A DNA stretch of 64,000 bases from a virus (taxonomy: Duplodnaviria > Heunggongvirae > Uroviricota > Caudoviricetes), in IMG/VR virus record IMGVR_UViG_3300012324_000010; one strand, written 5' to 3'. The number at the start of each line of letters is the position of its first letter. The first letter of the stretch is position 1. The notes beneath the pieces were generated by a model. It saw only the letters and a program-made list of their open reading frames with translations. It was not told where the DNA came from and made no database searches. Both the position numbers and the translations under genes were made by a program. Positions 3,936 to 64,000 of the stretch are shown one piece after another.

Positions 3936-4067
3936 AACATTAATGCAGCCTAAGGCAAAATAGATACCTTGGACTGCATTTTTGTATATGGGTGTATTTG
4001 TGTCCCTTTTTATGGAAATCAAAAAAATGCATATCAACTTAAAAAGTTTAATATGCATTCTGCTTTG

Positions 4068-4142
4068 TCGGGATGACAGGATTCGAACCTGCGACCTCTT
4101 GTTCCCAAAACAAGTGCTCTACGCAAACTGAGCTACATCCCG
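4068..4142 (-). tRNA. tRNA-Pro (UGG)
   Basis: Cloverleaf with acceptor CGGGATG/CATCCCG, anticodon loop TTTGGGA, T-loop GGTTCGAATCC. Confidence 0.92.
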
Positions 4143-5954: not shown

Positions 5955-6023
5955 AGATAAGTTCTCCTTGAAAATAGATAGTGTGTGTGCTTCTTCCATT
6001 CTAGATGATGGAGAAGAACATGT

Positions 6024-37757: not shown

Positions 37758-37809
37758 AGTATTAGTTAATCTGCGTAATAATTACTATATATAATACCAA
37801 ATTCGCAGT

Positions 37810-38724: not shown

Positions 38725-38911
38725 AGGGATAAATCCTTGTGATTATAGAAAACGGGGTAATAACAGTTGTACCTTTTAGCTTTCTGCTACACCCATTATA
38801 GGAATACCAAGAGCGCACCAAGATACATAATCAATCCTAGTGCGCTCTTGGTAAAAAACCATATCCTGATACTTTTAATAACAGAATGAAGTTGCAATAA
38901 CAACTAATGGT

Positions 38912-40594: not shown

Positions 40595-40872
40595 TATAGC
40601 ATCACCTTTCAAGGAGAAATAAAAATGAACTGTATATTTTTATATTATACCATAAAAACCTGTGTGCTTGAACTATGAAGACACAGGTAACACACAGCTT
40701 TATTAAATATAATACCATAAAGTTTACAACTTGTCACTAGGTGTACATTTTTGTACTGCATCCAGAGACAGTGGGCTTTTGCAGAGAATAACACCAATAA
40801 AGAAAAAAGTAGATAGAACTTGTTTAATCAAGTCCTATCTACTTTCTATTTAATGAGGAAGAATATCACATC

Positions 40873-43800: not shown

Positions 43801-46800
43801 AGAGAAGAATGATTCTCTCTTATTAGGAATACCAACATCTCCCTTGTGAGGGAAGACATCATAGATAACAAGATCTCCACGCTCATTTTCTGTACCGTTA
43901 TCTAGTCTAAGCTTGTAATCTAGAAGTGCTCCAGGATCAGTGGTTACAGAAGAAGTCCATGCTTTAGGATCACCCTTATCATCATATGTTCTAATCTGCT
44001 TTCTAGCACTCATATCAGAAGCAGCAGTATAGTTAGTCCATACATTAGCATAAGACCACTCACCTGGTCCAGCAGGAGGATTGACTACCTTGTTAGCTAG
44101 TTCTGTGTTCTGTGCTTTGACATAAACATCATTATTGATTTTACCATCTGGAACAGTCATACTGGTTTTAACAGTGATGTAACCAACACTGAATCTATTT
44201 CCAGGATTAAGCTCTTGTGCAGTAGCAGAAGATGCCTTAAAGACAATAGCTGTTTGACCTGTTTCGTTGTAGTTTTCTACAACCTCATAGGAAGCACCAG
44301 GAAGTTGGGCAAACTGTGGAGCCATTTCTACATTTTCCACATCTACACCAAGAGGAAGAAGATCTACCTCTGTAATATTAGTGATAGTCTCACCAAAACC
44401 TTCACGTGGAGTAAATCCTACTGTGTAGCGAATGTTGTCATCAGTAATAATACTGTCAACCTTATCCCCATTGGAATTGTATCCCTGCTGGGTTTTGAAA
44501 GCAACTATTTCTTGGTTTTGTTCTCTGACAGTCTTTTGAGCATAGACAGGTCCAAAATTTCCTTCTTTGGCATCCAATTGTGCTCTGTTGCCAAAGATAG
44601 TATTTTGCTTTTCATCACCATAGATAGGTGTATCAGGATCTTTGAGCCTAGAGGTAAGTGAGATAATATCACTGGTTCCCTTTGCTAGAGGATGATCAAT
44701 AAGTTGCATTTCTAGTTTATCAGCATTGATAACCTTATTCTTTTCAAAGGTTGCTGTTCTCTCAGAACCATCTATCATATGAGATTCTAGAATAGCACCT
44801 CTATCATCAATAGCTCTAACCTCAACCTTTCCTAGAGACTGTGGAATAGTCACAGTGTCATAGTACATTCTTGGATCGAGATCAAAGTCTGTGAATACAG
44901 CATCATGGAAAGTCTCAACAGCACTGAAGGGAATAGTCCATCCAAAAGTACCATTTCTCTCCAGAGAGTTGTCATAGAAATAGTTGCTAGAAGAAGGTCC
45001 ATGATTTCCAGTAGCAAATTTAGCAATAATCTTTCCAGGTGGTGGAGTGTACCTAGCAAAGTGATTAGTTGTTGTGTCAGTAGTGAGCATCACTGGCTCA
45101 GTATTAGGCTTGTTAAAAGGAACAAGTGTTGTCTCAGATTTCAGTGGAATGCGCTTATTTTCCACAGAACCAGGATAGCCCAGAACAAGAGTGTCAGTAA
45201 AATCAACAGACGTATTATTCCTTGTCCCCTTAAAGGTGACATAAGTACCATCATCACTAATCTTCCATCCTGGGTTGAGTTCAGGATCAAACTTAGCTAG
45301 ACGGGTAGGATCATTGGAATCATAAAGTTTAGACTTCTCGTGAACGGTGTATTTAGGAAGATATACCCTTGTTTCATAATCTCCTACATTTCTATCAAGG
45401 TTGATGTTTCTAATGTTGTAGGTGATAGTATTTCTGACTCTTTCACCTTCTCTATCATCAGCAACATAAGCATCAGGGTTTTCGCCATCATTAGACACAA
45501 CGGTCTGCTCATAGTCATCAATGAGACCATTCTTCTTTTCCCCATTAGCTGTCACCCTTTGATAAGGATTCCTATAGTATCCAACGAAAGAGTCAGGCTC
45601 AGAAGTTCTCACAATATTTCCATCATTGTCAACCAAAGTTGCTACAACAGGGAACTTGGTTTTGGAAGGAGTTACCTTTTTCTTGAACTTTACCCTAAAA
45701 GGAATAGTAGTAGACTGTGCAGGATTTAGCAGTGGCACAACAAAGGAGAAAGTATTTCCTTCACGCTTAAAAGTAGACTTATCAATGTTAAGACTAGATG
45801 TTGTAATATCTACAGAGTTTAGATCATAAACACTAGGATCTAATGTGAAATAAACCCTAGAGTTCACCAAAGGTTCAGTGTCATATCCAGTCCTGTCAAT
45901 TCTTACCCTACCTGTCATAGAGTCACCAATGAGATAAGGATCATCATTGTTGAGTTCAAGGGAAATATTAGTCTTTGTATCTTCTTGTACGTCGCTCTTG
46001 GAATAAACAACCTTTACGGTTTGAGTCTCTTCTCTAGCCGCTGTGTACTCAATGGAAGGCTCCACCGCCTTATAGCCTAAGTGCGCCAGGAACGGAGGCG
46101 TAAATGTCACCTTTTCATCACTAGATCGTGTTTCAGTAATAGATGGAGCTATCTCATTACCCTCTTCATCAACAAAGACATAAGTAACCTCTACTGGGTT
46201 AATACGGATAAGCCATATTGACTTAGCATTGTTAGGGTTGGTCCTATCATGAGTAATGAAAGTGATAGGCCTAGGGATGCGGGAAGAATTCACATCTGAG
46301 ATAAACTCACTTGTAAGGTTTTCTGAGGGAAGCGTAAAGATAAGGTTTTCAGGGAGTCGGTTGTTACCAAACGAAAGATTACCGATCGATACAACCTTAC
46401 CCCAATCATCAGGAAGCGCGGTAAGTTGATTATCATAAAAAGCCTGATCGTCAATCGTAGTCACCTCGTCCCAGCTGTCAGGAAGAGAGACGAGTTGGTT
46501 TTTTTGAAACGCAGATTTACCAATCTCAGACACCTCACCCCAGCTATTAGGGAGAGATGTTAGCTGATTTTCGGAGAATGCAGCTTTACCAATCTTAGTC
46601 ACCTTATCCCAGTTATCAGGAAGAGACGTCAGCTTGTTGTTAGAGAACGTGTAGTCTGCAATAGAAGAAACTTCACTCCAGTCATCGGGGAGAGAAGTAA
46701 GTTGATTTCTTTCGAACGCAGATTCACCAATCTTAGTCACCTTACCCCAGTCATCGGGGAGAGAAGTAAGTTGATTTCTTTCGAACGCAGACTTATCAAT

Positions 46801-49545: not shown

Positions 49546-50496
49546 ATGGATAAAAAGAAAATCATTTCCCATCCTACACCTAAGACATCACCTGATCTGC
49601 TTGTCTATGGCAAGGATAAGTTTGCTGATATCTCTAACCATAATGATAAGGTTGTTGATGACTACATTGTTCTTCCTCGTAGTTTTTCTGATGCACTAAA
49701 GTCTTTTCCTACTATTCAGAAATATCAGAAAGAAAAGTATCCTAAGAAGTTCTTTTGGCGGCAAAAGATCAGGGAATATTTCCAGAATAAGTATGGAAAA
49801 GATCGCTATAACATGGCTGAAGCCAACGAGGAAACTGCACTAATGGTATCAGCACTTGTTGGTGGAGCGTTTTCATTTATTGCACCACTATTTATTTACC
49901 TTTCCTTTTTCTGTGAAAATCCTGAGTTGGAATCATCACAAGGTAATGCTATTGGTATAGCTTTTCTTGTTCTTTTCTTCTACATCATTGTAGTAATGTG
50001 GTTTTTATTTTTTAGTCCTTGGGGTATTGATTATGATGAAGAGAATATGAAGAAGAAACTTCAGTATAAGATCCCTAATGAAGACAAGAGGTGTGTATAT
50101 GAATCTCAATTCATGTGCATAGACAAGTATGCTGATAAGTTCCCATCTTTCCACAGCAAAGCTATTCTATATCTTGCAGAAAAATCTGTATACAAGCTCT
50201 TCATGGATACCGATCCAGACATCTTGAACTCTATGCAGATTGTTCCTCTATCCCAGTCCTATGATGAATTGATGGATATGCTAGTTTTTACCCTAGCAAA
50301 TAGCGAAAATATTTCTGCAGAACTTATTGATGACTACACACAAGAGCTGCATAAGAGATTGGAAGTTTTCCAGGAAATGACAGAAGATATGGTACATGCA
50401 ACCAATGATATGGAAGAATACCAGGAGACTGCATATCAGAACTCTCTAGATGATGAAGCAGTAATGTTCATGCCAGTTTCCAGGAAGAGCAAGTAA
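49546..50496 (+). CDS. membrane protein, family H
   Basis: GAAGGA RBS; KKIISHPT, two TM segments, SYDEL. Confidence 0.85.
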   Translation: MDKKKIISHPTPKTSPDLLVYGKDKFADISNHNDKVVDDYIVLPRSFSDALKSFPTIQKYQKEKYPKKFFWRQKIREYFQNKYGKDRYNMAEANEETALMVSALVGGAFSFIAPLFIYLSFFCENPELESSQGNAIGIAFLVLFFYIIVVMWFLFFSPWGIDYDEENMKKKLQYKIPNEDKRCVYESQFMCIDKYADKFPSFHSKAILYLAEKSVYKLFMDTDPDILNSMQIVPLSQSYDELMDMLVFTLANSENISAELIDDYTQELHKRLEVFQEMTEDMVHATNDMEEYQETAYQNSLDDEAVMFMPVSRKSK

Positions 50497-50574
50497 GCAG
50501 AGAACACACCCTCATCTATTACAGGTGAGGGTATTTTTATACACTTGTCATTAATGATAAAAAGAAAGGTATCA

Positions 50575-51210
50575 ATGAGTACTACATATATTACTTCTGA
50601 TTTTATTCCAGAATATTTTCCTGAAGTTTTGTCTTATGGAAAAGAGAATATTTATAAGATTGTCAACAATGATTATCTAAGCACCATTTCCTCCATGGTA
50701 GCCCCAAGAGATTTTTCAACCGCTAGAAAATCTTTTCCTCTTATCCAGAAATACAGGGGAAAAGATATACAGCACTTCATAAAGAAAAGTCCACGTATTA
50801 AGTTAAATGATCTTTTCCAATATGGATTCTACAAGAATAAAAACACCCCTGAAAATCAATACAAGTTCTATAACGATCTGCAACAACTAGATAACTGTCA
50901 GTTCTTCTATGTGGATAAAAGCTCCAATGCATCTTATCTTTTTTCTAGTTCTCAGAAGAATGTAGAAGAAAATACCTTTACATCTTTTATCACTTCTGCT
51001 GCAAAACTGTTTGAAAACAAGAACATCAACAGTCTATCCAACTGTGATATTGATGATCTCTCACAGTCTTATGATGATTATATGGATGCATTGATTTTTG
51101 TGTATGCAAGAAAAGATTTTATGACTAAGGATCTACTTTCTACATACCAAGAAGAGCTGGTGAAAAGATCAGAGGTTTTTTGCAAGGTTGTATCTACTAT
51201 TCTACATTGA
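50575..51210 (+). CDS. family H protein lacking the TM pair
   Basis: PRDFSTARKSFPLIQKY and LSQSYDDY shared with neighbours. Confidence 0.75.
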   Translation: MSTTYITSDFIPEYFPEVLSYGKENIYKIVNNDYLSTISSMVAPRDFSTARKSFPLIQKYRGKDIQHFIKKSPRIKLNDLFQYGFYKNKNTPENQYKFYNDLQQLDNCQFFYVDKSSNASYLFSSSQKNVEENTFTSFITSAAKLFENKNINSLSNCDIDDLSQSYDDYMDALIFVYARKDFMTKDLLSTYQEELVKRSEVFCKVVSTILH

Positions 51211-51315
51211 TAAGTAGTAGATGATTTGTGTCCCCTTTGGTTGTAGAGATATTTCTTGGTATGCTTATGTTTAAAGCAACACCCACATAGAAACACAAAG
51301 GAAAAAGAAGACATT

Positions 51316-52266
51316 ATGCCTGATAAAGATATCATTCCAGTGGTAAACTCCACTACCTCCCCTCAGGTATGCTGCAAAATTGATGACAGCAACACATATA
51401 AACGTGCTATCTCAAGAAATGATCAATGGATAAATCCTAGCTCTACTGATTGGAATGTTATACCTACAAGCTTTTCTGATGCTAGATCTTTATACTCTTT
51501 CATCCAATCAGGAAAGAAGCCATCAGGGTTATTTCACTCAACTTCTTCTGTTGTATCTCTTGCTTTAGCATCTTCTATACTATCTGCATCTTTTATTTAT
51601 CTTGCTGCTTATGATACTTTCACTTCACTAGGAATAGCTTTAAAATCAGCTATGGCTTTAGTGTGTTTTCTTGCTTCCTTGATTGTTGTTGCAGTGCCTG
51701 TATCCTTGGTATCTCATCAGTGTTCCAAGAAACATGGAAAAGTTATCACTCAGCTTGATTTTAAGGATTTTTCTTCTCGTTATCCTTCATCTTTAGAAAT
51801 GATAGATCTTCATTCTATAAGGAAAGAATGCACCCCACAGTCTCCCAGTGCATCTTCCAGGATGTTTGACTGCATTGTGCAAGAATGTACTCAATGCTTA
51901 AAAGATGTAGGAAGGGCTATAGAGTGCATAGAAAAGCTTCCATCAGAAACTGTAGATACTCAAAAGCTGCAAGAATCCTATGATGATTATGTCTCCACAT
52001 TCTCTTTTGCTATTGCTAATAAGGATGCTATCTCACTTGATCTCTTAAGAAAATATAGGAATGATTTGAAAAAGATAGCACAAGAAATAACTCTGCAGTC
52101 AGAAGAGATTGTATCATTGTATTCTTCCTATAAAGAAGAAGTAGAAAAATCCAAGGAAGAATATAACTTAGAGATAGATAACATTAAAAGAGAAATGAGA
52201 CAAGGAGATCTCAATAGAGCTGATGATATGGCCACATCACTTATGCCATTGAGACAAGAAGATTGA
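51316..52266 (+). CDS. membrane protein, family H
   Basis: PTSFSDA, two TM segments, LQESYDDY. Confidence 0.85.
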   Translation: MPDKDIIPVVNSTTSPQVCCKIDDSNTYKRAISRNDQWINPSSTDWNVIPTSFSDARSLYSFIQSGKKPSGLFHSTSSVVSLALASSILSASFIYLAAYDTFTSLGIALKSAMALVCFLASLIVVAVPVSLVSHQCSKKHGKVITQLDFKDFSSRYPSSLEMIDLHSIRKECTPQSPSASSRMFDCIVQECTQCLKDVGRAIECIEKLPSETVDTQKLQESYDDYVSTFSFAIANKDAISLDLLRKYRNDLKKIAQEITLQSEEIVSLYSSYKEEVEKSKEEYNLEIDNIKREMRQGDLNRADDMATSLMPLRQED

Positions 52267-52427
52267 TCTAGAAAGAGGGAGATGAGATTTTCTCTCAATG
52301 GTGTCATTTGTGTCCCTTTTGATGTGCAGTATTGGTATATCTTGTACCTTCTTTTAAGATAGGAGAAGATACAAGACTTACATATCATCTTTCAAGGAGA
52401 CTGTAACTCATGAGAGTAGAAAGTTTA

Positions 52428-54011
52428 TTACACTATGATACATTTGATATTCATTTTAAAAATGTCATTTGTATCATAGATAACTTTCATGCTGCCTTTT
52501 ATGGTCATACATTTACAGTCGCTGCTGCAAAATGCATCTAACGCTACCCTAGAATCATTGTTGTTCTGCGCAGAGCATTGTGTTAATGGTTTCACCTCTT
52601 TTCTATTCTTCCTTTTTGGTGTTGGTTTATTTTTTGTTCTGTCTCTTCCTGGGAACTTTAATGTTTTTCCAGTACCATTTTTAGACCTTTTCTTAGGTGT
52701 ATTTTTAGCATTTTTCTTAGTATTTCTCGTTTTTATCATCTTAGAAAAAGTGCTATAAGGCTTATCATCTCTAGAAGTAGTAATCCTTTGAGCAATGTTA
52801 GCAGCTGCATTGATGTCTCTATCTAATGTGGTATTACAAAAGTTGCATACTACAATGTGATATCCTTTGAAGGTTATCTTTCTTCCACAACTGCAACACA
52901 CTTGGGAAGTGTTATAGCAACTGGTTTTGATAACTCTTCCACCATTGAGTTCTACTTGTTCAGTAGTCCTTTTAACCAGTTCTCCTCTATTCCACCTACC
53001 ATTTTCCATGGTGTTTTTGATCCAGGATAGATCTTCAAAAACTACAATAGCATTTTCCCAAGCATAAGAAATCTCAGCGATCTCTTGAGCAGCTAAGATT
53101 GCCAGTTCTCTTTTCCTTTTGGAATTTGAAGATCTATGTAGCATAGCTTCATCTTTTCTTCCCTTATTTTGCAGAGAAGATACTTGAACATTAGACTTTT
53201 TGACTTTATTAGCTAAGCTATGAACTCTTTGTGAAAGTGTAGTAGAATGAGCTATTCTTTTCTCTTTTGTGTCATAGACAACAACAGTTGCATAGTTTGC
53301 TATTCCTACATCTACTCCTACTACATACCTATTGCTGAAATGAGAGAAGTTGTATTTATACACAACAGGAAAGGAAAACCTCACTTTACCATTTTTATCC
53401 ACATAGATAGATGGTTTTGCTATGTCATCAGCATTATGAAACCTTTTATCATAATCAAAGTAGAACTTGTACCACTTTCCCTGCACAACCAAATTCAAGA
53501 CAATAGTGTCATCAACTATATCCATTGTGCAGTATGCTTTATCTACATCTCCTAGGTTTATCTTTGGTGAAAGATTGCGTGGTTTATAAGATTGCGCAGT
53601 TCTAGACCAACCCTGAGAGACATATTTGCTTGATGTCCCTTCTACTGCTTTACATCTTTCAATCCATGATTTGCATTCTGATACAACTCTAGCTCCAAAA
53701 AGCTTATTGACCCTAGATCGTCCAGATCTCCCAGGATAATAAAACTCTTTTGGATAAACAATGTCTAGTCTTCTAGCTATTTCTGCATTGTTGAGATTGG
53801 ATAGGTTATCTTTCTTTCTATTTTCTATGAACTCATCTACCAAGTTTTTATTTTCTACTGTGATATTCATTTCTGCTATATCTGTAATAAGCATTATTTC
53901 ACTTTTAAGATCACTTAATACTTTATTTACATCAACAACTTGTCCATTTTTATCAGAAGCAGCAAAAGGTGAGGTGATAATAGATCTGAATAACTCATTA
54001 CTATTTCTCAT
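52428..54011 (-). CDS. tnpB: TnpB RNA-guided endonuclease (IS607-associated)
   Basis: VGVDVG, FEDLSW, TSQVCCSCG...CNFC...DRDINAA; basic tail with PTPKRK. Confidence 0.88.
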   Translation of the reverse strand: MRNSNELFRSIITSPFAASDKNGQVVDVNKVLSDLKSEIMLITDIAEMNITVENKNLVDEFIENRKKDNLSNLNNAEIARRLDIVYPKEFYYPGRSGRSRVNKLFGARVVSECKSWIERCKAVEGTSSKYVSQGWSRTAQSYKPRNLSPKINLGDVDKAYCTMDIVDDTIVLNLVVQGKWYKFYFDYDKRFHNADDIAKPSIYVDKNGKVRFSFPVVYKYNFSHFSNRYVVGVDVGIANYATVVVYDTKEKRIAHSTTLSQRVHSLANKVKKSNVQVSSLQNKGRKDEAMLHRSSNSKRKRELAILAAQEIAEISYAWENAIVVFEDLSWIKNTMENGRWNRGELVKRTTEQVELNGGRVIKTSCYNTSQVCCSCGRKITFKGYHIVVCNFCNTTLDRDINAAANIAQRITTSRDDKPYSTFSKMIKTRNTKKNAKNTPKKRSKNGTGKTLKFPGRDRTKNKPTPKRKNRKEVKPLTQCSAQNNNDSRVALDAFCSSDCKCMTIKGSMKVIYDTNDIFKMNIKCIIV

Positions 54012-54683
54012 GCTTTTTCACCTCTTGTAATGCATCATTAAGAAACCTTTTTATTTGCTTCCATCCTCTTAGACCATAAAACTTTCCAGAGAAAGAAGCT
54101 GAAAGACTCATAAAATCCTGCATAAGAACATCATGAGGTTCTTTAGTGTCATCAGAACCCAAAACTACAATCTTGCAGTTGCATTTTTCAAATAACTTTT
54201 CAAGATACACAAAACCAAATATAGCCAACCTATCTTTGTTAGTGATATAAAGTATTTTAGGTTTGTCATTCTTTTCTATCAATGATATAAGCTTATTTAG
54301 ACCTTTTCTATTTTCATTGAGACCTGAAGCATTGTCTGTGAAAGAAAAATCAGGTTTCCCATATTTTCTTTCCATCTTTTTCAGCTGTGTGTCAATAGAA
54401 ACATCATTTTTATTACTAGATCGTGCATAAAAGATTTTGACTTCTGGTTCTTGTTCAATTCCTAATCTTTCATTCTTAAATTGGACAAGATAGTCATAAT
54501 CAAAAACCTTTTGACCAGCAGCAGAAAGGGAATAGCTTAACTTGCCATCAGCACACCAATTGCGCACAGTTCCAGGTGAAATTTGTAAAATCTCAGCTGC
54601 ATCTTTTACTCTAATTGGCATAGTATATCTCCTTTTAGTATTTAGTTATATTATTGTAGCATAATGTAAGTATTTATGCAACT
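52482..54683 (-). mobile_element. IS607-family element 2 (ends tentative)
   Basis: tnpA-tnpB overlap; left end ...AGTTGCA resembles element 1; AACT shared at 52482-85 and 54680-83; excision gives a 46-codon plus-strand ORF from the RBS/ATG at 52410. Confidence 0.7.
54001..54621 (-). CDS. tnpA: IS607-family serine recombinase/transposase
   Basis: HTH; YARSS; DRLAIFG (usually DRLARFG); SFSGKFYG. Confidence 0.9.
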   Translation of the reverse strand: MPIRVKDAAEILQISPGTVRNWCADGKLSYSLSAAGQKVFDYDYLVQFKNERLGIEQEPEVKIFYARSSNKNDVSIDTQLKKMERKYGKPDFSFTDNASGLNENRKGLNKLISLIEKNDKPKILYITNKDRLAIFGFVYLEKLFEKCNCKIVVLGSDDTKEPHDVLMQDFMSLSASFSGKFYGLRGWKQIKRFLNDALQEVKKHEK

Positions 54684-54851
54684 CTTGGAAAGACTTATAT
54701 ACCATTTTTAAGGAGAATATAATACAACACATGAAAGTTCAGGCATAGGAGAAGTTTTATCTTTTTGGAAGAAGAACATAATGTGTGTTAAATCACAAGA
54801 AATATGCGTGTCTTTCCTTGACAAAAAATCACCTACCCTATATAGTAGAAG

Positions 54852-55017
54852 ATGTACTTGAGAGAGAAAAAGCTACCGTAATCTCTCTCAAGGACAATAT
54901 CGTTTTTGCTAAAAACCTACATTTTCACAACTGCGACTGTTATTGCTATAGTGGAAACGATGACATTTCCAGTAAAAAACACCTCTTATGGGAAACTTGC
55001 CACAAGGGGTGTTTTTT
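54852..55017 (+). ncRNA. candidate small RNA, copy 1
   Basis: TTGACA-17-TATAGT; two hairpins plus terminator; stems conserved in the copy at 56181. Confidence 0.6.
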
Positions 55018-55118
55018 ATATCTTTTTCTAAAATGCATTGAACCTTATTGCAGGAAATGGTACTCTGGAAGGAAAAAGATACTATCATTTTTCAATTCCA
55101 AAAGGAGTATATCTCACA

Positions 55119-56087
55119 ATGCAACAAGATATCATTGAGTTTCCCAACTCATCTAATAGCCCTGATTTTATCTATAAGATAGACAGTTTGAAGAAGTTTC
55201 AAGATAATATCTTGAAGCCATATTTGAAAAGAGAAAACCCAGAATATCAATGGACAGATAGCACTTGTGATATCACGCCTACAAAAGCTTCTTATATCAA
55301 AAAAATGTCTCCTTTACTAAAGAAGAAAGAAGATGTATCTGCTACAGACAGTATTGTATTCAATATAGTGAAGATGACCAATATTCTCTTATTCTTCCTA
55401 CTTCCAGCACTAGCAGTGTATCTTTTCTATTTTGGTTCTCCAGATGCAATCATGATATGGGAAGAGGGAGGAATCATAGGAAAAACTATTCATACTTTAT
55501 TTATCATTTTTTCATATTTTATTCTTTTATGTTTTGTTTCTCCTATTGCGCTGTTTGTGGGAAAAGTAGCACATGAGTTTCTTGATAAATCCAAAGATCT
55601 AGCTCAATATAAAAGAGATAAAGACTTCTATAACAAAATAGAAGTAGTAGATATTGCTAAACTACAAGATATTGGAGAGACAGTAGGAAACACCCCATTT
55701 TACCATGAAATGTTAAACTGCAAGAACTGCTGTGCTCAAGTAATAAACATCTTGGAAGATATTTTCCTTCTTCCCTATGGAGATTCTGTAGATACCTCAC
55801 AACTAGAAAAAGCATATGATGACTACATTGATCTCATTCTCTTTACTGCTGCTAGTAGAAACGTGATGTCAGAGCATCTTCTCAATGACTATCTAGAAGC
55901 TATATACCAAAAGATGAGAACAGTTCTTTTTGAAGTGAAAAAGCTTAGAGAAGTAGATGGTGATTACAAAAAGCTCATTCATAAAGCCCATAGGGAAACA
56001 GAAGAGATTGATCAAGCTATCAAGCAAGATGATCAAGACAGGATGGATGATCTTGTTGCTTCTATGAGAGATCCCTTTGATTGTTGA
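55119..56087 (+). CDS. membrane protein, family H
   Basis: AAGGAG RBS; two TM segments; VDTSQLEKAYDDY. Confidence 0.85.
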   Translation: MQQDIIEFPNSSNSPDFIYKIDSLKKFQDNILKPYLKRENPEYQWTDSTCDITPTKASYIKKMSPLLKKKEDVSATDSIVFNIVKMTNILLFFLLPALAVYLFYFGSPDAIMIWEEGGIIGKTIHTLFIIFSYFILLCFVSPIALFVGKVAHEFLDKSKDLAQYKRDKDFYNKIEVVDIAKLQDIGETVGNTPFYHEMLNCKNCCAQVINILEDIFLLPYGDSVDTSQLEKAYDDYIDLILFTAASRNVMSEHLLNDYLEAIYQKMRTVLFEVKKLREVDGDYKKLIHKAHRETEEIDQAIKQDDQDRMDDLVASMRDPFDC

Positions 56088-56180
56088 TTGGAAATACAAT
56101 CACCAATAATGTGTGTTAAATCACAGTAAAATAGGTGTGTATTTCTTTGACAAGAAAGCATTATACCTATATAGTAGAAG

Positions 56181-56357
56181 ATGTACTTGAGAGAGAAAAT
56201 ATGTGACCATGACGTTTCTCTCAAGGACAACATCATTTCTGCTGGTAAGGCTGCCAAAAATAACCATCAGCAGAAATGAAGTACCTCCTGACGAAAAGAA
56301 AAACACCTCTTATTTGCTACTACAACTGCTACAACCGCAATAAGAGGTGTTTTTCTT
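56181..56357 (+). ncRNA. candidate small RNA, copy 2
   Basis: Same promoter and stem architecture as 54852-55017. Confidence 0.6.
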
Positions 56358-56476
56358 ATATCTTTTTCTCCCTCACATTTGTGTCCCTTTCAAGGGTTTT
56401 CCTTAATGGAAAAACCCTCCCACACTAGGACATATCACCTAGTGCAGGAGGATTCCACCCCTCTCCTATATCTTCC

Positions 56477-57100
56477 TTATACTGCTACTCGCACATTCTT
56501 GTCAATGACATATCCATTAACATTCCATGCTGGATATTCTCCAGTGTAAGGGCTGTTATCAGGATACATTGCTGGAACATTTTCACCCTCTTCAGGGTTT
56601 CCCAAGCATTCCACAGTGTGCTCTTCCCAGCCCCTGATTCCACGCTTGAACACAGTCATACCTACCTCAACATCTTCAACAGGAATAATCTTGCTGCCCA
56701 AGAACTTCTTACCTAGCTGAACATTCTCAGGTTGAGCATTGTCAATAGCTTCTAGCATCTCATCAAAATCATGGTCATCCTGCTCTACTGCAGGTGCATC
56801 AATGCGCTGAATGATATCCCAGTTCTCATCTACTACATAGATACCATTATCACCTGGGGAACAAGCTTCTAAGTTGCGCGGATCTAGGGAAGCAATATGC
56901 ACAGATCCTAGCTTGAAGAAGTTATTAGCAATGGTGATAAGGGTAGATAGCCCTCCATCATATGCTTTCTCACCTAGTCCTTGTGGGGTGTGGAAGGAAG
57001 CATACTTTAGGAAAGGTGCTACAGAATCCATCCCTCCATTCCAGTGAAGTTCAATTCCTACAGTAGAGTTCTTGCTGGTGATAAGAGCACGGTTTCCCAT
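56477..57100 (-). CDS. hypothetical phage protein (MGNRAxI...LHWNGG type)
   Basis: AAGGAG RBS; promoter module. Confidence 0.85.
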   Translation of the reverse strand: MGNRALITSKNSTVGIELHWNGGMDSVAPFLKYASFHTPQGLGEKAYDGGLSTLITIANNFFKLGSVHIASLDPRNLEACSPGDNGIYVVDENWDIIQRIDAPAVEQDDHDFDEMLEAIDNAQPENVQLGKKFLGSKIIPVEDVEVGMTVFKRGIRGWEEHTVECLGNPEEGENVPAMYPDNSPYTGEYPAWNVNGYVIDKNVRVAV

Positions 57101-57321
57101 GATTGTTCTCCTTGTGATGTGGTGTTTTCCTCTTGAACACTTATTACTTTATAGGGTGGTTGATGGGTGGTCAAGTGGAGGGGGTGCAAGATACCCCTAT
57201 GTGGGTGTAGATGATACAGAAATCATGTCATATACTTGTGTCCCTTTGCAGGGATAAAAGAATAACCTTTCTAGGAATCTTTTATTAAAATCCCCAGAAA
57301 GGTTAATCCAATATGAAGCTA

Positions 57322-57699
57322 TTAAATCTGCTCAGTGAGAACCTTAGCAAAAAGACGCTTGGCATTAGCTGCAGCTTGCAAAACTACAGACAACTCTTCT
57401 AGTTCTTCAGCAGTATCAGCCAGGTTGGAGGGAATAGAAACCTCTACACCAGAGTAATCACTTTCCCCATCCAGGTTATCTACTGGGTAGAGATCAACAC
57501 CAAACGTGCTGTCATTCTGGATGCCTACAAACTTATTATCCTTAGTGAAGTTATCCTTATCCTGAGAGAAGTAGCGAACTACCAGCTGGTATGGCTCAAC
57601 ATCCCAGGTAGGCTCCTTGATGTACTTTTCAACTTCACCGTTGTTATTGTACTTAGCAAAAACTCGCTCTTCTGGTTGAATGATGTTCTGAGAAGTCAT
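57322..57699 (-). CDS. hypothetical protein
   Basis: AAGGAG RBS; promoter module. Confidence 0.85.
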   Translation of the reverse strand: MTSQNIIQPEERVFAKYNNNGEVEKYIKEPTWDVEPYQLVVRYFSQDKDNFTKDNKFVGIQNDSTFGVDLYPVDNLDGESDYSGVEVSIPSNLADTAEELEELSVVLQAAANAKRLFAKVLTEQI

Positions 57700-58003
57700 G
57701 ATATGTGGTCTCCTTGTGATGTGGTGTTTTCCTCTTGAACAACTTCTACTTTAGGTAATGGTTGCTAGGTGGTCAAGTTGTCTGAAGGTGAAACACCCCT
57801 GAATGGGTGTAAATGAGAAAAACACACATAAACACATATGATCACAATATATCCCACAGAAAAAACCACACAATCCCACAATAAGAGATTATGTGTGTCC
57901 CTTTTTGTATATGCAATATTGAATATTAAATAGAAAAAACTCACTCTCTCTTAGCTATTTTGCGCTTAGAGAGGAGTGAGTTTAGCTAATAATCACTTTT
58001 AAA

Positions 58004-58101
58004 TGCAGGAGAAGAGATTTGAACTCTTGAGACTATGATTTATCATAGTCATGATTGGAGGTTTTCCAACCACTGCTTAGACCTGGCTTGCATACACCTG
58101 C
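58004..58101 (-). ncRNA. tRNA-like RNA 1 with extended anticodon stem and long variable arm
   Basis: Acceptor GCAGGTG/CTCCTGC-A; D arm; T arm AAGAG-TTCAAAT-CTCTT; anticodon arm TGGTTGGA-AAACC-TCCAATCA. Confidence 0.75.
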
Positions 58102-58143
58102 GTGGAAAACATTTTCATCATTGAGCATAATATGTGCTATATA

Positions 58144-58242
58144 TGCAGGCGAAGAGATTTGAACTCTTGACACTATGCGCTAACATAGTCATGATTGGGG
58201 TGCTCCCCAACCACTGCTTAGACCTGTCTTGCATACGCCTGA
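58144..58242 (-). ncRNA. tRNA-like RNA 2 with extended anticodon stem and long variable arm
   Basis: Acceptor TCAGGCG/CGCCTGC-A; anticodon arm TGGTTGGGG-AGCA-CCCCAATCA; promoter TTGACA-18-TATAAT at ~58308-58279. Confidence 0.75.
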
Positions 58243-58357
58243 ACAAATATTTTCCACTATTTGATTATTACAGTTATTATTATAATGCTACTGACAACAA
58301 CTTGTCAAGCAATATCATAATATTTTTTACAGGAAATAATATTCATTATCTCCTAAG

Positions 58358-58441
58358 TACTCCCTGTGGGGATCGAACCCACATACTATAATAAGTACCG
58401 GATTTTAAGTCCAGCGCGTCTACCAATTCCGCCAAGGGAGC
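58358..58441 (-). tRNA. tRNA-Leu (UAA)
   Basis: GCTCCCT/AGGGAGT acceptor; anticodon loop CTTAAAA; long variable arm; GGTTCGATCCC. Confidence 0.92.
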
Positions 58442-58831
58442 ATTAAAAAAGCAACAATGATAATACAATACTCATATTCTAAAAACAGTGAAAGAAATCA
58501 AACTGTTTTTAAAACACAACCATATTACATTATCATTGTTGCTTACAAATATTAATCATAACACCACTTAGCAAGTAGTGTCAAGTTTAATATTTTCTAG
58601 AAAAACTAAGTTTTAACTTGTCTTCTAACCTTGTTGATTACACTACCTATTATAACCATCAATGATTCCACCTGTCAAGTTGAATGGGATATTTTCTTTC
58701 ATGTGAACTTCTCACTTCTTAGCTTCTTGATATATAAGTAGGAGTGGTACAAGAATAACCATTATCTAATAGCAAAACTCTCCTTGCACAATACATTTCA
58801 TGCAAGGAGAGTTTTATGCTCTTTGTATCAG

Positions 58832-58954
58832 CTACACATTGGCATAAGAATAGCCCTGGCTGTCAACTCCTAGAGAAGAAAGAGAAAAAGTGGAAGGATA
58901 TTCAGCAATGCCAGAAATGATACCGGAAATAATGTCAAAGAAAGAAATGAGCAC
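58832..58954 (-). CDS. 40-aa hydrophobic/amphipathic peptide (not in the ORF track)
   Basis: GGGAG RBS, GTG start, promoter with TATAAT at ~59031-36, terminator at ~58775-58815. Confidence 0.6.
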   Translation of the reverse strand: MLISFFDIISGIISGIAEYPSTFSLSSLGVDSQGYSYANV

Positions 58955-59187
58955 AGTAATCTCCCTGTAGTAGTAAGTGGTGTGGTTTTCATCCACAACA
59001 GTGATGTTTTCCTGCTGTGGTATGCCTTTTATTATAGTGGTAAAAACATACCTTGTCCAGCTGTTATGAGATTATATTCAGTGATGTATAACACCTATAT
59101 TCATGTCCCTTTGCGTCATAAAAACACCCCTTCAACTGTCCATTTTCTAGACAATCAAAGAGGTGTTATCTTGGATGACATCTATCT

Positions 59188-59499
59188 TTAAAAGATCTTT
59201 TCTTCTGCATAAGAGTTCTGCTTTACTACATCAAAATAGCAAGGATAATCCAATACTACTTCACTAGGATCTTCATATTCTATGCCAGTCCACGTGCGCT
59301 GCCTTGAGGTAATAGAAGCATCTCCATTAGCATATTTCCTCACAGATAAAAAGAATGCTGCAAAATCATCTTCTGCATCATCATTGACTTCCACTGTAAG
59401 TTGTACTTGTTCACAGCAACCCTCGCTATTAGAAATAAGAACATCAAACTCATAAGGCGAGTGTTGTGTTAAGTCTTTAGCGTGATAGATAGTATCCAT
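59188..59499 (-). CDS. acidic protein, family C
   Basis: AEDDFAAFF...RTWTGIEY...YPCYFD. Confidence 0.8.
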   Translation of the reverse strand: MDTIYHAKDLTQHSPYEFDVLISNSEGCCEQVQLTVEVNDDAEDDFAAFFLSVRKYANGDASITSRQRTWTGIEYEDPSEVVLDYPCYFDVVKQNSYAEEKIF

Positions 59500-59739
59500 T
59501 GATATTTTTTCTCCTTGGGAAACATGTGTGATGGTGTCTTTGTTGTTGATTTAATGCTACCAGTAAGGATGTATCTTGTCCATTTAACTCTAGCTTGTAG
59601 TGGAGATAAGCTAGCCTTGCACATACAAAAACACCCCTTACCTTTTTTCAAGATAAGAGGTGTTTGTGGTTTCTATCTATAGTATAGATATAACCTAGTT
59701 CAGGTTAGTGGAGAAATAGTTCTCCACTATTCTTGAGCT

Positions 59740-59913
59740 TTAATCCCATGATACAGAAATCTTTGCACTGTTGAGAAGCTCTACCATCTTGTTGTAGTCA
59801 TTGTCATCAAGATTGAGTTCTTCATTTTCTACATCTAGTCCATATTCCCAGTTTCCCTGTGCAGATCCAACCAGAATTTCCTGTGCAATCTTCTTAAGTT
59901 CATTGTCGTTCAT
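59740..59913 (-). CDS. 57-aa hypothetical protein (not in the ORF track)
   Basis: AAGGAG RBS and promoter module; MNDNELKKIAQEILVGSAQGNWEYG...ISVSWD. Confidence 0.8.
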   Translation of the reverse strand: MNDNELKKIAQEILVGSAQGNWEYGLDVENEELNLDDNDYNKMVELLNSAKISVSWD

Positions 59914-60035
59914 GATTTTTTCTCCTTATATGTGGTGTGTTTTCCTTTGAACACTTATCACTATACAAGGCAATCAACAGATGATCAAGAAGAAATATTT
60001 CCCCACCCCATTTCAAGGGTGGGTGATTCAGTGGT

Positions 60036-60142
60036 AAAAAAAATAACATGTGCTCCGAGCGTATAGTTAAAAAAACTAAACCTTCACCTTTCTAGCTGAA
60101 GCTATATACTTCAACTAAAAAAGTTCTATCTCGAAGCTAACT
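60036..60142 (-). ncRNA. candidate structured small RNA
   Basis: TTGCAA-17-TATGAT promoter; closing helix GCTTCGAG/CTCGGAGC enclosing hairpins; T8 tract; no ORF. Confidence 0.5.
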
Positions 60143-60305
60143 TTAACAATCATACCATGTATTTCTTATTTTTGCAAAACACTTAAAAGCATGTCTTTGC
60201 ACATCATGTCCCTTTCTACCAATCAAGAAACACTAACACCTGCATATACGCAAAAACACCCCTTACCTTTTTCAAGATAAGGGGTGTTTTTTATAGGAAG
60301 TTGTT

Positions 60306-60617
60306 TTACAGCACAGCTACAACCCAATCTAGATTATCAAGAACTACTTCTTCATCAGTATCTTCCACCCAAGCAATCTCAAAGAAATCTAGGTTGTCAT
60401 CTAGAGCTTCAACCTCATCTTCGTACTCAACACCATTCCAGGTGCGATCTTCTGCAGTGTTATCTTCATCATCTTCATCAAAGGATGCTACAGCGTGGAA
60501 AAAGTCAGAAAATCCAGCAGGTGCATGAAGAGCAATGTTTACTCCTACCTTTGCTTCAAAGGTCTTTTCTCCTTCAACATCCTCAAAAACCCCGGTGAAG
60601 ACTAGTGCGTTAGACAT
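60306..60617 (-). CDS. acidic protein, family C
   Basis: APAGFSDFF...RTWNGVEY...FFEIAW. Confidence 0.85.
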   Translation of the reverse strand: MSNALVFTGVFEDVEGEKTFEAKVGVNIALHAPAGFSDFFHAVASFDEDDEDNTAEDRTWNGVEYEDEVEALDDNLDFFEIAWVEDTDEEVVLDNLDWVVAVL

Positions 60618-60896
60618 TGTATGTTTCTCCTTGTAAGTGGTGTGTTTTCCTCTTGAACAACTTCTACATTAGTGGATGGTTAGATGGTGGTCAAGTTGTA
60701 GAGGGGTGGAATACCCCTGAATGGGTGTAGGTTAAGATCTTTGTTTGTATCATCCAAGGTGATACAAGTGAAGTTATCAGCTAATGATTTCCCCGTCATA
60801 TTCATGTCCCTTTTTGATAGAAATAAATCAATAATCCCTGCACAAGGTGCGTGAGGAGTTGTACAAGTTAAGGTGTGTGCTATGAGGAAATCAATG

Positions 60897-61277
60897 TTAT
60901 CTCCATTCTGTGGTGTAGCGATACATTGTTGTTCCGGGTGCAGCATCGAAATAATATGGATCAGTAGCATCACCATTCCAGCTACCACGGGGATGTGGCT
61001 CTGTTGTGATGGTCTCAATATCCATATTGGCTATGGTTTCTAATGCACGACGGATATGATGCTGTGGAATTGGGTGGTTGTCTATGTCTTGCAACCAGTG
61101 CTGTGCTTCCTCAGGAGACATTGCAGTGTTTTTGGCGTTATGTCTTAGCTCAGGAAAATCTGGAGCAATAAGTCCTTTCTCATCAAGTGAATCTACCATT
61201 TCCCGTATGCTCTTGTTTTGAAAGTGCCATGCAAGAAGTAGACTGTTGATACGTTCTTTGTTGGTCATAATGTTCAC
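60897..61277 (-). CDS. hypothetical protein
   Basis: 126-aa ORF; GAAGG RBS near MTNKE. Confidence 0.7.
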   Translation of the reverse strand: MNIMTNKERINSLLLAWHFQNKSIREMVDSLDEKGLIAPDFPELRHNAKNTAMSPEEAQHWLQDIDNHPIPQHHIRRALETIANMDIETITTEPHPRGSWNGDATDPYYFDAAPGTTMYRYTTEWR

Positions 61278-61609
61278 CTTCTTTTGGTTAGCATTTAGCT
61301 GCTCTTTCCTGGTTGGTCATTTTCTTTTCTATTGTGATATGGTGTTTTCCTTTTGAACACTTATTACTGTAGTGTCTTATTGTAACAAGGACAAACTGCA
61401 TCAAAAATCATCACCCCAGCAAAGAGGTGTTTTCTAAAAAACATACCCTTAGCTGCAACAACCTTCAAAGTGGAGGTGCAAATATATCTTGTGCTATAAA
61501 CTGTGTCCCCTTGCAATACATCACATCAGGTTAATCCATCATGCAAAAATTCACCTTTGAACTACCCTCCCCCTTATCACGGTTGAGATGAGGGGTTGTG
61601 TGATAATGG

Positions 61610-62194
61610 CTATTCAAGAGCAGAAAAGAGGCAGGAATTCACCCACGGGGATAAAACCCATGGTTTTCTGGATACCTTCTTATCATACAAGCTAGAAGAC
61701 ACGCTGTGTTCTGGCCTTGTCATACAGAATGTATCTACTACAATCTCAATGTCTTTATCAAGGAGATCTAGATCAAACATTTCTTTAGAATTTTCACAAA
61801 TAACGTGCATAGGATGATTGCGAGCAATATGAGAATACGCTCTATGAATACTCTCTTGTAGATTCTCACCTTCATATCTATATATTTTCACATTCTTATT
61901 TTCTACAGTGCCAGCTGCAATGTAGTCTTCCATGTCAAAGCAATCTACCCAGGAAGCAAAGTCAGTAACAGTAACATCCCCTAGCTCATCTAACTGAGAA
62001 AAACTGTTTCCCTTACACCATACTTGTCTTAACAGAGAATCAATAGCACGCTCTGTGTATTCTTGTGGATCTTCTAACTTAATCCCGTAATCCTTCCACA
62101 AGGAGAACTCTAGATCTCCGCGTAAAACATCAATAGATTCTTCAATGATTTCTATTTGTCCGACATCAATACGCGCAAAATCCTCTATAGTCAT
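61610..62194 (-). CDS. hypothetical protein, family I; C-terminus reads through an IS605-end-like hairpin
   Basis: Paralog of 62979-63455 (QLDELGD...TDFASWV). Confidence 0.8.
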   Translation of the reverse strand: MTIEDFARIDVGQIEIIEESIDVLRGDLEFSLWKDYGIKLEDPQEYTERAIDSLLRQVWCKGNSFSQLDELGDVTVTDFASWVDCFDMEDYIAAGTVENKNVKIYRYEGENLQESIHRAYSHIARNHPMHVICENSKEMFDLDLLDKDIEIVVDTFCMTRPEHSVSSSLYDKKVSRKPWVLSPWVNSCLFSALE

Positions 62195-62352
62195 GATGTT
62201 CCCCCTTTGAAGTGGTGTAGTAAAAAGTGATGTTTTCCTATGGATGACTCCACTGTACCAAAGGTTTATTTCCTAAACAAAGCAACCCCACCTATCTTTG
62301 GTAAGTGGGGTTTCTTTGAAGTTATTATAACTCCTGTGTTTTTTACTTTTTT

Positions 62353-62754
62353 CTATTTATCTACTACCTCAGACAAAGCAGCGATCTTATCACGCAAACT
62401 AGGCTCAATAATCTCTACATGAACTGCTTCAGACTGGAAGGGTCCAAACTTTACCACAGCATCCTTATCAGCAAGAAAATATGTATTATCACGCTTGACA
62501 ATACCATATTTTTCAAGCTCATCAATATTCCCTTTGCCTTCAGAATAATTCTTGATGAAAACATGGTTCTTATCTTTAGGTTCTAGGTGGTAATCTCCTA
62601 GGTTTACAGAAAATGTACCATACGGTACATACATCTGAAACTCTTCATCAAAATAGGTGCTTGTAAGAGCAGTAGTTCCATCACCGTAGAAGCTAACATA
62701 CAACTCCAGGGTTTCTTTCTCATGGGTAAGTGGGCTAGTGAACTCAATCTTCAT
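62353..62754 (-). CDS. hypothetical phage protein (possibly DUF4313-like)
   Basis: AAGGAG RBS; PYGTFSVNL...FIKNYSE. Confidence 0.75.
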   Translation of the reverse strand: MKIEFTSPLTHEKETLELYVSFYGDGTTALTSTYFDEEFQMYVPYGTFSVNLGDYHLEPKDKNHVFIKNYSEGKGNIDELEKYGIVKRDNTYFLADKDAVVKFGPFQSEAVHVEIIEPSLRDKIAALSEVVDK

Positions 62755-62978
62755 TGATAATCTCCTTGATTGTGTGCTGTTCTTGATTGTGTCAACTCTT
62801 ATTATACAGCAGGTGTTGAATAAGATCAAGCAGTTATCCACAGTTGATCATACAACAAACTGTGTCCCTTTATAATAGACCATATCAAGTTTTCCCAGAA
62901 CAAAAATGCACCTCTCACCTCTCCTATTATCTAAAAAAGGGGGGGGTGAAAGATGCATTATGTTCTGGGTGTTGCTGC

Positions 62979-63455
62979 TTAAGCCATATCTGCTACAATC
63001 TCAGTGTTTTCATTGAGGATATCTACACCAAACTTCTCCTCAATACCCTCACGAATAATGCGCATGGGCTGTTCACGCACAGTAGAAGAATATGCACGGC
63101 GAAGATTTTCCTTTGGACCTTCCCCTTCATAATCAAATACCTCTACATTCTCATTATCTACAGTTCCAGCTGCAAGGTAGTCTTCCAGATCAAAGGTCTC
63201 TACCCAGGAAGCAAAATCAGTACGGCTGATATCTCCCAGCTCATCCAATTGGTAGAAGTTATTTCCTTCAAACCATACCTCCTCTAGCAGGGAATCAACA
63301 GCATACTCTACATACTCTTCTGGGTTTTCCACCTTTATGCCATACTCTAGCCACAGGGAAGATACTAGGTTGTCTCGCAGGATATTTACTGCTTCCTCAA
63401 TGATGGCTACCTGGTTGTCCTTATCCTGTACGAAATCACTCTTAGAACCAAACAT
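62979..63455 (-). CDS. hypothetical protein, family I
   Basis: AAGGAG RBS; promoter module. Confidence 0.85.
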   Translation of the reverse strand: MFGSKSDFVQDKDNQVAIIEEAVNILRDNLVSSLWLEYGIKVENPEEYVEYAVDSLLEEVWFEGNNFYQLDELGDISRTDFASWVETFDLEDYLAAGTVDNENVEVFDYEGEGPKENLRRAYSSTVREQPMRIIREGIEEKFGVDILNENTEIVADMA

Positions 63456-63671
63456 GATTGTTATCTCCTTGTTGTATGTTGTGGTGTTTTCCTTTTGAAC
63501 ACTTATGACTTTACAGTGTGGTTAATAGGTGGTCAAGTGGAAGGGGTGGGAAATACCCCTATATGGGTGTAGGTAGAGAATGTATATTTAGTGTCCCTTT
63601 TTCTCATAATCATTGATAAATACAGAAAAACCCCACATCTTTGAGAAGTGGGGTGCTATTTCTTTGTTGTT

Positions 63672-63950
63672 CTAGTTGTTTAGGAAGTTCTCAAATACTT
63701 CTGCTGCTTCCTGAGCTTCTACAATGTTTTCAGCCATCTTCTTTGCTTCACGTGCATCAAAAATCATTGCACTTGGAACGGTGATGAAGACACTGTAATG
63801 CAGCTCTTCAGGGTTAGGATTACGGGAATCCTTGTAATCAGCTTCTACAAAGATGTCACCCTGGAAGGAACCAGAGTGCCACACTCGGTAGCCAATACCT
63901 GGGCGGTGCTCTAGTTGGAAGTTCTTGTGCTTTGCAACAATGTTCAACAT
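63672..63950 (-). CDS. hypothetical protein
   Basis: AAGGAG RBS; promoter module running off the window edge. Confidence 0.85.
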   Translation of the reverse strand: MLNIVAKHKNFQLEHRPGIGYRVWHSGSFQGDIFVEADYKDSRNPNPEELHYSVFITVPSAMIFDAREAKKMAENIVEAQEAAEVFENFLNN

Positions 63951-64000
63951 GATGTGTTCTCCTTGTGGTGTGGTGTTTTCCTCTTGAACACTTATTACTT

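Follow-up and report, generated by a model that had tools for sequence, protein, structure and literature searches.

Tandem tRNA-Ser-like RNAs without an anticodon loop: probable non-decoding mimics, tentatively proposed as toxin decoys

Results

Two tRNA-Like Shells Beside a True tRNA-Leu

The window (the whole 64,000-nucleotide stretch of DNA that was analyzed) carries on its minus strand two tRNA-like cloverleaves in tandem, copy B (99 nt, 58242 to 58144) followed by copy A (98 nt, 58101 to 58004), which are called shells here. The features of the locus are collected in Table 1; L011 in the table is the only true relative among 12 metagenome-contig loci, and is about 92% identical. Positions within the shells are given in the standard tRNA numbering.

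Table 1. Features of the shell locus (window coordinates).
Feature	Position	Strand	Details
tRNA-Leu(UAA), intact, upstream neighbour	58357..58441	-	own promoters 58678-58649 and 58584-58555; long leader hairpin
Sigma-70-type promoter	58279..58308	-	TTGACA-18-TATAAT, 12/12 consensus
Outer helix, 5' strand	58262..58270	-	predicted; pairs with 57987-57995
Inner helix, 5' strand	58245..58257	-	predicted; 13 bp with 58102-58114, encloses copy B
Copy B	58144..58242	-	tRNA-Ser(GCU)-derived shell (most likely parent); U1.C72 mismatch, C2-G71, A73, CCA not encoded
Copy B, hairpin replacing the anticodon arm	58192..58213	-	22 nt, 9 bp + AGCA loop
Copy B, long variable arm	58171..58190	-	7 bp + 4-nt loop, G.G at base
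Inner helix, 3' strand	58102..58114	-	predicted; ends at copy A position -1
Copy A	58004..58101	-	tRNA-Ser(GCU)-derived shell (most likely parent); G1-C72, C2-G71, A73, CCA not encoded
Copy A, hairpin replacing the anticodon arm	58052..58072	-	21 nt, 8 bp + AAACC loop
Copy A, long variable arm	58031..58050	-	8 bp + 4-nt loop; compensatory changes in relatives
Outer helix, 3' strand	57987..57995	-	predicted; 9 bp in the window, 10 bp in L011
Terminator-like hairpin and U run	57933..57983	-	hairpin 57937-57983, six U, z -5.6

Both copies have a 7-position acceptor stem, U8/A9, a 3-bp D stem, A14 and G15, G18 G19, G26, C48, a 5-bp T stem, a UUCAAAU T loop and the discriminator A73. The canonical core (U8, A14, R15:Y48, G18 G19 and the T-loop consensus) is present in the shells, and so are the Ser-type junction and the long variable arm. 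The sequence-only reading of this DNA had described two paralogs of about 98 nt with a GG-containing D loop, a T arm and a type-II variable arm, and this description was confirmed. It had also called the acceptor intact, which holds for the 7/5 layout of the acceptor/T branch and for A73 but not for the pairing, as each copy has one acceptor mismatch: the 6:67 pair of copy A is U.U in the window and U-G in L011, and the U1.C72 mismatch of copy B is present in both sequences. CCA is encoded neither in the shells nor in the tRNA-Leu or tRNA-Pro genes of the element.

A normal anticodon arm has 17 nt; that of both shells is 4–5 nt longer, lacks U33 and folds as a single hairpin, with an extra G-U pair at its base in each copy. 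The collapsed arm, an 8–9-bp stem closed by a loop of 4–5 nt, was thus recovered by folding as it had been read from the letters. Compared with the canonical tRNA (RF00005), the 5 bp, the 7-nt loop and U33 are missing, and the 7+5 stems and the discriminator are present. The fold z-scores were -4.2 for copy A and -4.0 for copy B. As previously noted, the differences between the copies cluster in the two hairpin loops, where, counting the closing pairs, 9 of the 14 differences in the alignments are found.

ARAGORN called only tRNA-Pro and tRNA-Leu(UAA) in the whole window and neither shell, in line with the expectation that no normal tRNA would be reported. Rfam, run on 50000-64000, gave the tRNA-Leu as the sole match at the gathering score; over the shells, nothing matched as a tRNA even with E<=1 allowed. 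The two programs also confirmed that the shells lie beside tRNA-Leu(UAA). In the 17 window ORFs, TTA accounts for 86 of 606 Leu codons, matching the tRNA-Leu(UAA) that is carried; TCG is used in 4 of 706 Ser codons and CCG in 11 of 372 Pro codons.

Promoter, Terminator and Predicted Fold of the Transcript

The shells were found to have a consensus promoter of their own, with a 12/12 sigma-70 match at 58308-58279, and a downstream terminator-like hairpin (57937-57983, z -5.6) followed by six U, as had been claimed for both; this hairpin was missing from the list of a simple terminator scan. Both promoter hexamers are unchanged in L011, and the spacer varies. From the promoter spacing, transcription is predicted to start at about 58272-58271.

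For the predicted transcript (58272-57936), the fold z-score is -7.3 with the window sequence and -10.1 with that of L011. Both shells are nested in a predicted fold of about 285 nt, in which the outer helix begins at the predicted start and the inner helix pairs the -1 base of copy A. The inner helix is 13/13 Watson-Crick in L011, and a 13-bp match between leader and spacer was found in 0.4% of shuffles for the window (G-U allowed) and in 0/3000 for L011 (Watson-Crick). Leader changes that L011 has at 58249 and 58261 strengthen both long-range helices. In the minimum-energy fold of L011, copy B does not form its acceptor.

Such a fold would suit one structured RNA of about 285 nt (335 nt with the terminator), in which the shells would serve as folding modules or as handles for RNase P, 3' trimming or an elbow-binding protein and would never, or only partly, be released. 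The fold scores, the position of the helices at the predicted start and at the -1 base of copy A, the rarity of the 13-bp match, the strengthening changes of L011 and the 1:72 mismatch kept by copy B all speak for this possibility, which we nevertheless consider unlikely. The leaders of tRNA-Leu and tRNA-Pro are strongly paired too, so that long pairing looks like a local habit, and A73 and the 7+5 ruler are kept in both shells. No ORF or conserved cargo was found within the shell transcript, and in one contig the 42-nt spacer between the shells has 3 bases substituted and 5 nt inserted. Moreover, the terminal pair of the inner helix (58257) is broken in the main X1 contig, and no double-sided change was seen among the variants in either long-range helix. 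As for the leaders themselves, that of tRNA-Leu(UAA) forms a hairpin of about 43 bp (58448-58544, minus strand), and strong hairpins were also observed in that of tRNA-Pro.

The Closest True tRNA and the Identity Marks of the Shells

A model (R1) built from four shell copies found exactly two copies in the window and scored the shells themselves at 112–118 bits. Against 151 Actinomycetes genomes (the tallies of 151 and 401 Actinomycetes genomes in this work include the unpublished G007 and G036, whose sequence supports none of the claims), 79 genomes were matched at E<=1e-5, the best at 45–49 bits, and 25/25 of the top loci were tRNA-Ser(GCU). The identity of the shells to one such tRNA-Ser(GCU) was 18/29 at the 5' end and 22–23 of the last 27 positions. 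An origin from the neighbouring tRNA-Leu was rejected, since only 10/27 positions were identical in that case.

The actinobacterial tRNA-Ser(GCU) (RF00005) shares with the shells a 13-nt D-loop layout with GGUCUA, G15:C48, A3-U70, the acceptor and T-arm sequence and the stem-U-C48 junction. The shells differ from it in the 8–9-bp hairpin that stands in place of the anticodon arm, in the changes from G2-C71 to C2-G71 and from G73 to A73, and in a variable arm of 7–8 bp, against about 5–6 bp in the tRNA-Ser(GCU) matches; CCA is unencoded. On sequence, therefore, an actinobacterial tRNA-Ser(GCU) is most likely the closest true tRNA and the parent of the shells.

The substitutions fall on known identity positions. 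Among the E. coli identity rules, C2-G71 counts as an antideterminant against SerRS and A73 as a Leu determinant, and a SELEX set for LeuRS has A15:U48 and A20a as essential (PMC9976931). Both copies lack the G73 of the Ser identity set and carry the C2-G71 antideterminant. From the E. coli Leu set, A73, U8:A14, G18:U55, G19:C56 and U54:A58 are present, and A15:U48 and A20a are absent, the shells having G15:C48 and C20a or U20a. In overall shape the shells therefore resemble tRNA-Ser, but their serine identity is weakened and their leucine identity is only partial.

These marks raise the possibility that the shells are matured and charged with leucine by the host LeuRS, and would either donate their amino acid outside the ribosome or tie up LeuRS or EF-Tu as a sink. 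The five Leu marks that are present would allow it, the anticodon arm is dispensable for charging by the LeuRS of E. coli and Aquifex (PMC9976931, PMC2377443), and irregular tRNAs that are charged yet do not translate have been described (PMC5389517). By analogy with these systems, such a role is conceivable but rather improbable, given that the two marks essential in the E. coli SELEX set are absent and that no aminoacyl-transferase gene was found among the 56, 48 and 46 window proteins scanned. The G51-C63 T stem and the intact elbow of the shells are also unlike those of the staphylococcal non-proteinogenic tRNA-Gly.

Variation Among Strains

Between the window and L011, 1/99 sites differ in copy B, 7/98 in copy A and 8/197 in both together, compared with 0/85 in tRNA-Leu and 13/114 in the spacer between tRNA-Leu and copy B (Fisher P of 0.002 for copy B and 0.018 for both copies against this spacer). 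L011 is also near-identical downstream of the shells (1/238 and 1/378), and therefore this comparison with the flanks is affected by mosaic recombination.

Contigs of public runs, which covered the stretch in 4/4 runs of one set and 2/4 of another, added further variants. One X1 contig (record 2, depth 2.8, with 18 of its 22 differences given) has a U-A to A-U swap and one broken internal pair in the new hairpin, two changes from G-U to Watson-Crick, and a closing pair of the variable arm that is changed on both sides. In two X2 contigs (records 4 and 6, with 5/6 and 9/10 differences given), a U-A pair of the variable arm has become C-G and the hairpin loops are of other lengths.

Only 4 of 22 stem substitutions break a pair, where 11.6–16.6 would be expected at random (P<=0.0013, simulation), and four independent double changes keep the pairing (P<=0.002). 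When the low-depth contig was left out, the values were P<=0.016 for broken pairs and P<=0.0034 for double changes. The simulation did not use X2 record 6 and took a single new change from X2 record 4, since the remaining changes of these two records repeat those of L011, and position 6 of X1 record 2 was dropped as its partner was unreported; the count of double changes would be six with two non-independent cases. Taken alone, the four full sequences give pairs in 95.3% of cells and three pairs with double changes, a weak test with few related rows.

The hairpin stem that replaces the anticodon arm is thus under pairing selection, and its loop varies among strains both in sequence and in length, from 3–5 to 6 nt (AAACC, AGCA, GAACC or AAC, AAAACC). 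In the D loop, changes were given at positions 16, 17a, 20a and 20b only. No change was given in the variants at U8, A14, R15:Y48, G18 G19 or the T-loop sites, the contig ends being unreported. Variants common to the A and B positions suggest gene conversion between the copies.

The ordinary explanation for such genes would be a tandem duplication followed by decay, which would make them pseudo-tRNAs or integration scars. The mismatch in each acceptor stem, the occurrence in close strains only and a downstream flank of L011 as conserved as the shell genes agree with it. We find it quite improbable, because the new hairpin and the variable arm have compensatory changes and broken pairs are in deficit, the 5' and 3' halves are full-length, the perfect promoter is kept in L011 and the 2:71 swap relative to tRNA-Ser is compensated. 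Random stem decay, named in the sequence-only reading as the outcome that would speak against function, is therefore unlikely, and an integration scar was rejected on the same grounds.

Covariation across relatives, proposed earlier as a check, was obtained in close strains only: every homologue is at least about 89% identical. Selection is well supported, but over a shallow evolutionary range. With the compensatory changes and the low divergence relative to the adjacent spacer, the shells are very probably a selected, non-decoding tRNA mimic, as had been supposed.

A decoding tRNA with an intron, or one reading frameshifts, can practically be dismissed: the extra 4–5 nt in the arm are all that speaks for it, and U33 was restored by 0/10 contiguous deletions in copy A and 0/13 in copy B (counting deletions after which the arm has 17 nt and 4 or more of its 5 pairs), so that no simple excision yields a U33 loop as removal of an intron would require, and decoding tRNAs keep 5 bp + 7 nt, with 6 bp in Pyl and mitochondrial exceptions (PMC7609411).

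Searches for Homologues and Expression

Five scans of viral contigs gave 2, 5, 2, 48 and 0 pattern loci, with no true homologue among them, and no pattern match was obtained in genome contigs, where 9 distant protein loci (33–44%) were found without a tRNA or R1 match. The patterns used for metagenomes, for genome contigs and in one viral scan required a D-loop motif that two variant contigs lack, and so would miss diverged members. BLAST against phages and plasmids returned only tRNA-Leu or short chance stretches, and no DNA match was found in a sample of 401 Actinomycetes genomes, searched with no positive control. Within the window, no antisense target was found beyond one 13-nt chance match. 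Since the shells are invisible to ARAGORN and Rfam, genes of this type are probably under-counted.

In contigs of the RNA-Seq runs X5 and X17 there were 0 records over the shells, which carries no weight either way. In X4, guessed to be an RNA run, the shells lie in a contig that continues through the flanks, as DNA would.

Other tRNA-like loci were met in these searches. At L010 (437-537, plus strand), a tRNA array includes one tRNA whose anticodon loop is that of His (GUG) and whose long variable arm has 8 bp. This tRNA was missed by ARAGORN and scored 43.7 bits with Rfam; since it combines a His anticodon with a class II body, it might accept Ser or Leu. Four of the 48 viral T-arm loci (L036, L047, L050 and L078, at about 340-430) have a T arm and a 3' end with no ARAGORN call; at <=25 bits with R1 they are not homologues, and may be other look-alikes. 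Hairpin-rich stretches resembling the reverse complement of a tRNA-Tyr end were seen at L007 (5984-6075, adjoining a tRNA-Tyr gene) and in L003 and L006 (near 6001-6080), and are probably attachment-site remnants.

The Element That Carries the Shells

Six of 10 window proteins were found in a protein collection, five of them on contigs of 374–383 kb, which makes it likely that the window is part of a recurrent element some 375 kb in size; relatives with proteins 58–83% identical exist. This large bacterial element is probably mobile and is no established phage. No virion gene was found among 48 window proteins compared with PHROGs, and protein scans of viral contigs gave no close relative, or one distant locus at 27%. 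The pilin, the kinase and a 207-aa neighbour have distant best matches that are actinobacterial, from which we infer an actinobacterial host. The G+C content of the window is 37%. The Inocle giant elements have a lower G+C content (24–32%) and Streptococcus-type genes (PMC12340149), in contrast to the distant actinobacterial matches of the window proteins.

Genes for a sortase pilus, a polynucleotide kinase/phosphatase and a DNA methylase lie in the window, together with several genes of TnpB type. The pilus cluster (36816-49200) is complete, with a class C sortase, an SpaH/EbpB pilin and a 2775-aa LRR tip adhesin with 69-nt repeats, and the element that bears it, likely of about 375 kb, did not occur in the viral, plasmid or genome collections that were searched. 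Four TnpB/Cas12-like genes are present (9173-10831, 13979-15151, 16831-18150 and 52428-54011), two of them adjoining IS607-type serine resolvases; PADLOC matched 1/25 window proteins, a Cas12/TnpB-like one. For the 125-aa neighbour, the ESM Atlas gave leads below 0.9 only. Dispersed repeats of about 90–115 nt with a promoter and a ribosome site, in 8–12 copies over 7442-64000 (e.g., 57091-57207, 57693-57809, 60611-60727 and 63453-63569), stand ahead of many single short genes.

The polynucleotide kinase/phosphatase is of the T4 type, an enzyme with a role in tRNA repair. Its gene (2847-3935) converges on tRNA-Pro(UGG) (4067-4142), and no RNA ligase was detected in the window.

Discussion

A Possible Decoy for Toxins That Read the Shape of tRNA-Ser

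The partner of the shells would be one that reads the upper half of the tRNA and the variable arm, because the 12-bp acceptor/T helix, the elbow, the long variable arm and the discriminator are kept and the loop at the anticodon position is free. We tentatively propose, by analogy with known toxins, that the shells are decoys for host toxins that recognize tRNA-Ser by its variable arm, elbow and acceptor helix. MenT3 needs the D/T-loop core, the acceptor-T length and a long variable arm, whereas shortening the anticodon stem has little effect on it (PMC11162799); how long the variable arm is and how it is oriented matter to it (PMC11541572). The parts kept in the shells match these needs. Septu cuts the variable loop of class II tRNAs and is countered by extra tRNA copies, for which its authors raised both decoy and supplement roles (PMC13096335), and Cas12a3 engages the T arm, the acceptor stem and CCA (PMC12851939). 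The polynucleotide kinase/phosphatase of the element is in keeping with exposure to tRNA damage.

The steps can be outlined as follows. The promoter at 58308 would give a precursor of about 335 nt, from which RNase P and 3' trimming by the host would release one or both shells, with CCA then added. Charging with serine would be reduced by C2-G71 and A73, the anti-Ser and pro-Leu marks of E. coli, and decoding would be excluded by an arm 4–5 nt too long and without a U-turn. The shells could then compete with the real tRNA-Ser for acceptor-end nucleotidyltransferases of the MenT/AbiEii type, or for nucleases that cut the variable loop or the CCA tail. In a wider form, which we regard as doubtful, a giant plasmid-like element would have turned a tRNA-Ser into a translation-inert RNA antitoxin that titrates toxins or nucleases reading class II tRNAs: the anticodon would have been sealed, the synthetase marks switched, the variable arm lengthened and the gene duplicated within a self-closing RNA of about 285 nt.

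Several points weigh against the decoy proposal. MenT3 needs a CCA end, and the maturation of the shells is uncertain because the -1 base of copy A is predicted to be paired and copy B is mismatched at 1:72. On E. coli tRNA-Leu, MenT3 reaches under about 5% of its modification of tRNA-Ser (PMC11162799), and the shell acceptors are Leu-like. The variable arm, with its 7–8 bp, exceeds that of the tRNA-Ser(GCU) matches (about 5–6 bp). Finally, a decoy facing a catalytic enzyme would have to be very abundant or inhibitory.

The sequence-only reading had offered another target, the anticodon nucleases PrrC, RloC, VapC and AriB. The T4 tRNA-repair type of the kinase/phosphatase and the pairing selection on the replacement hairpin are compatible with it, but AriB recognizes the anticodon stem-loop (PMC11464382), which is the part that was replaced and varies freely in the shells. 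Such enzymes are described as reading the loop sequence (PMC12851939), and the shell loop is variable and mimics no anticodon. As the loop that they read was lost, this is the least supported function, and we find it very improbable.

It is known that mobile elements can overcome tRNA-targeting defences with functional tRNAs that resist cutting. If the decoy proposal is true in its wider form, the shells would represent counter-defence by a tRNA decoy and not by a non-cleavable working tRNA.

Comparison With Known tRNA-Like RNAs

No description of a tandem shell family was found in the literature searched, which included few subscription papers; the supplementary figures of PMC5389517 could show similar forms. 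The nearest likeness is to the species 1 and 2 RNAs of phage T4, rnaC and rnaD (NC_000866 70908-71171), tandem small RNA genes that also lie beside true tRNAs in a mobile genome and are given as of unknown function in PMC9697503 and PMC12685909. In the fold of rnaC, a hairpin precedes a T arm and there is no anticodon loop. The T4 RNAs (139 and 119 nt) are mutually unlike and are not full cloverleaves, whereas the shells are paralogues with a D arm, an elbow and the 7/5 branch. There is no sequence relation between them; within that locus (L032), R1 matches only the T4 tRNA-Ser.

Inactive allo-tRNAs and irregular polycistronic tRNAs are likewise Ser-like look-alikes with a long variable arm; they occur close to toxin-antitoxin genes, and some are charged yet not used in translation (PMC5389517). 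Beside the shells, no toxin-antitoxin pair was detected. These RNAs have an 8/4 or 9/3 branch and keep their anticodons (PMC5389517), and the allo-tRNAs were rejected as a class for the shells, which have a 7/5 branch and no anticodon loop. The tRNA-Other of Bacillus cereus is also a tRNA-like RNA of a mobile island, made as part of a longer transcript, and is poorly charged and acts outside translation (PMC3399842). Unlike the shells, it keeps a Trp anticodon, acts on a T box and is a single chromosomal copy. The bacterial Y RNA YrlA, which acts outside translation too, depends on a module that binds Ro60 and on a Ro60 gene beside it (PMC4201824). Neither was seen for the shells, and YrlA was rejected on finding no TROVE/Ro60 family among 56 window proteins and no Rfam match.

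The shell pair is filed under no known class, because it lacks a defining feature of each. It belongs to a known but unexplained kind, the non-decoding tRNA look-alikes. Stable look-alikes of this kind, such as T4 rnaC and rnaD, have been without an assigned function for decades. The shells provide a clean case, with an identifiable parent, changes that map onto the identity rules and variants that reveal which parts are kept, and the decoy proposal, if true in its wider form, would suggest a job for RNAs like rnaC and rnaD.
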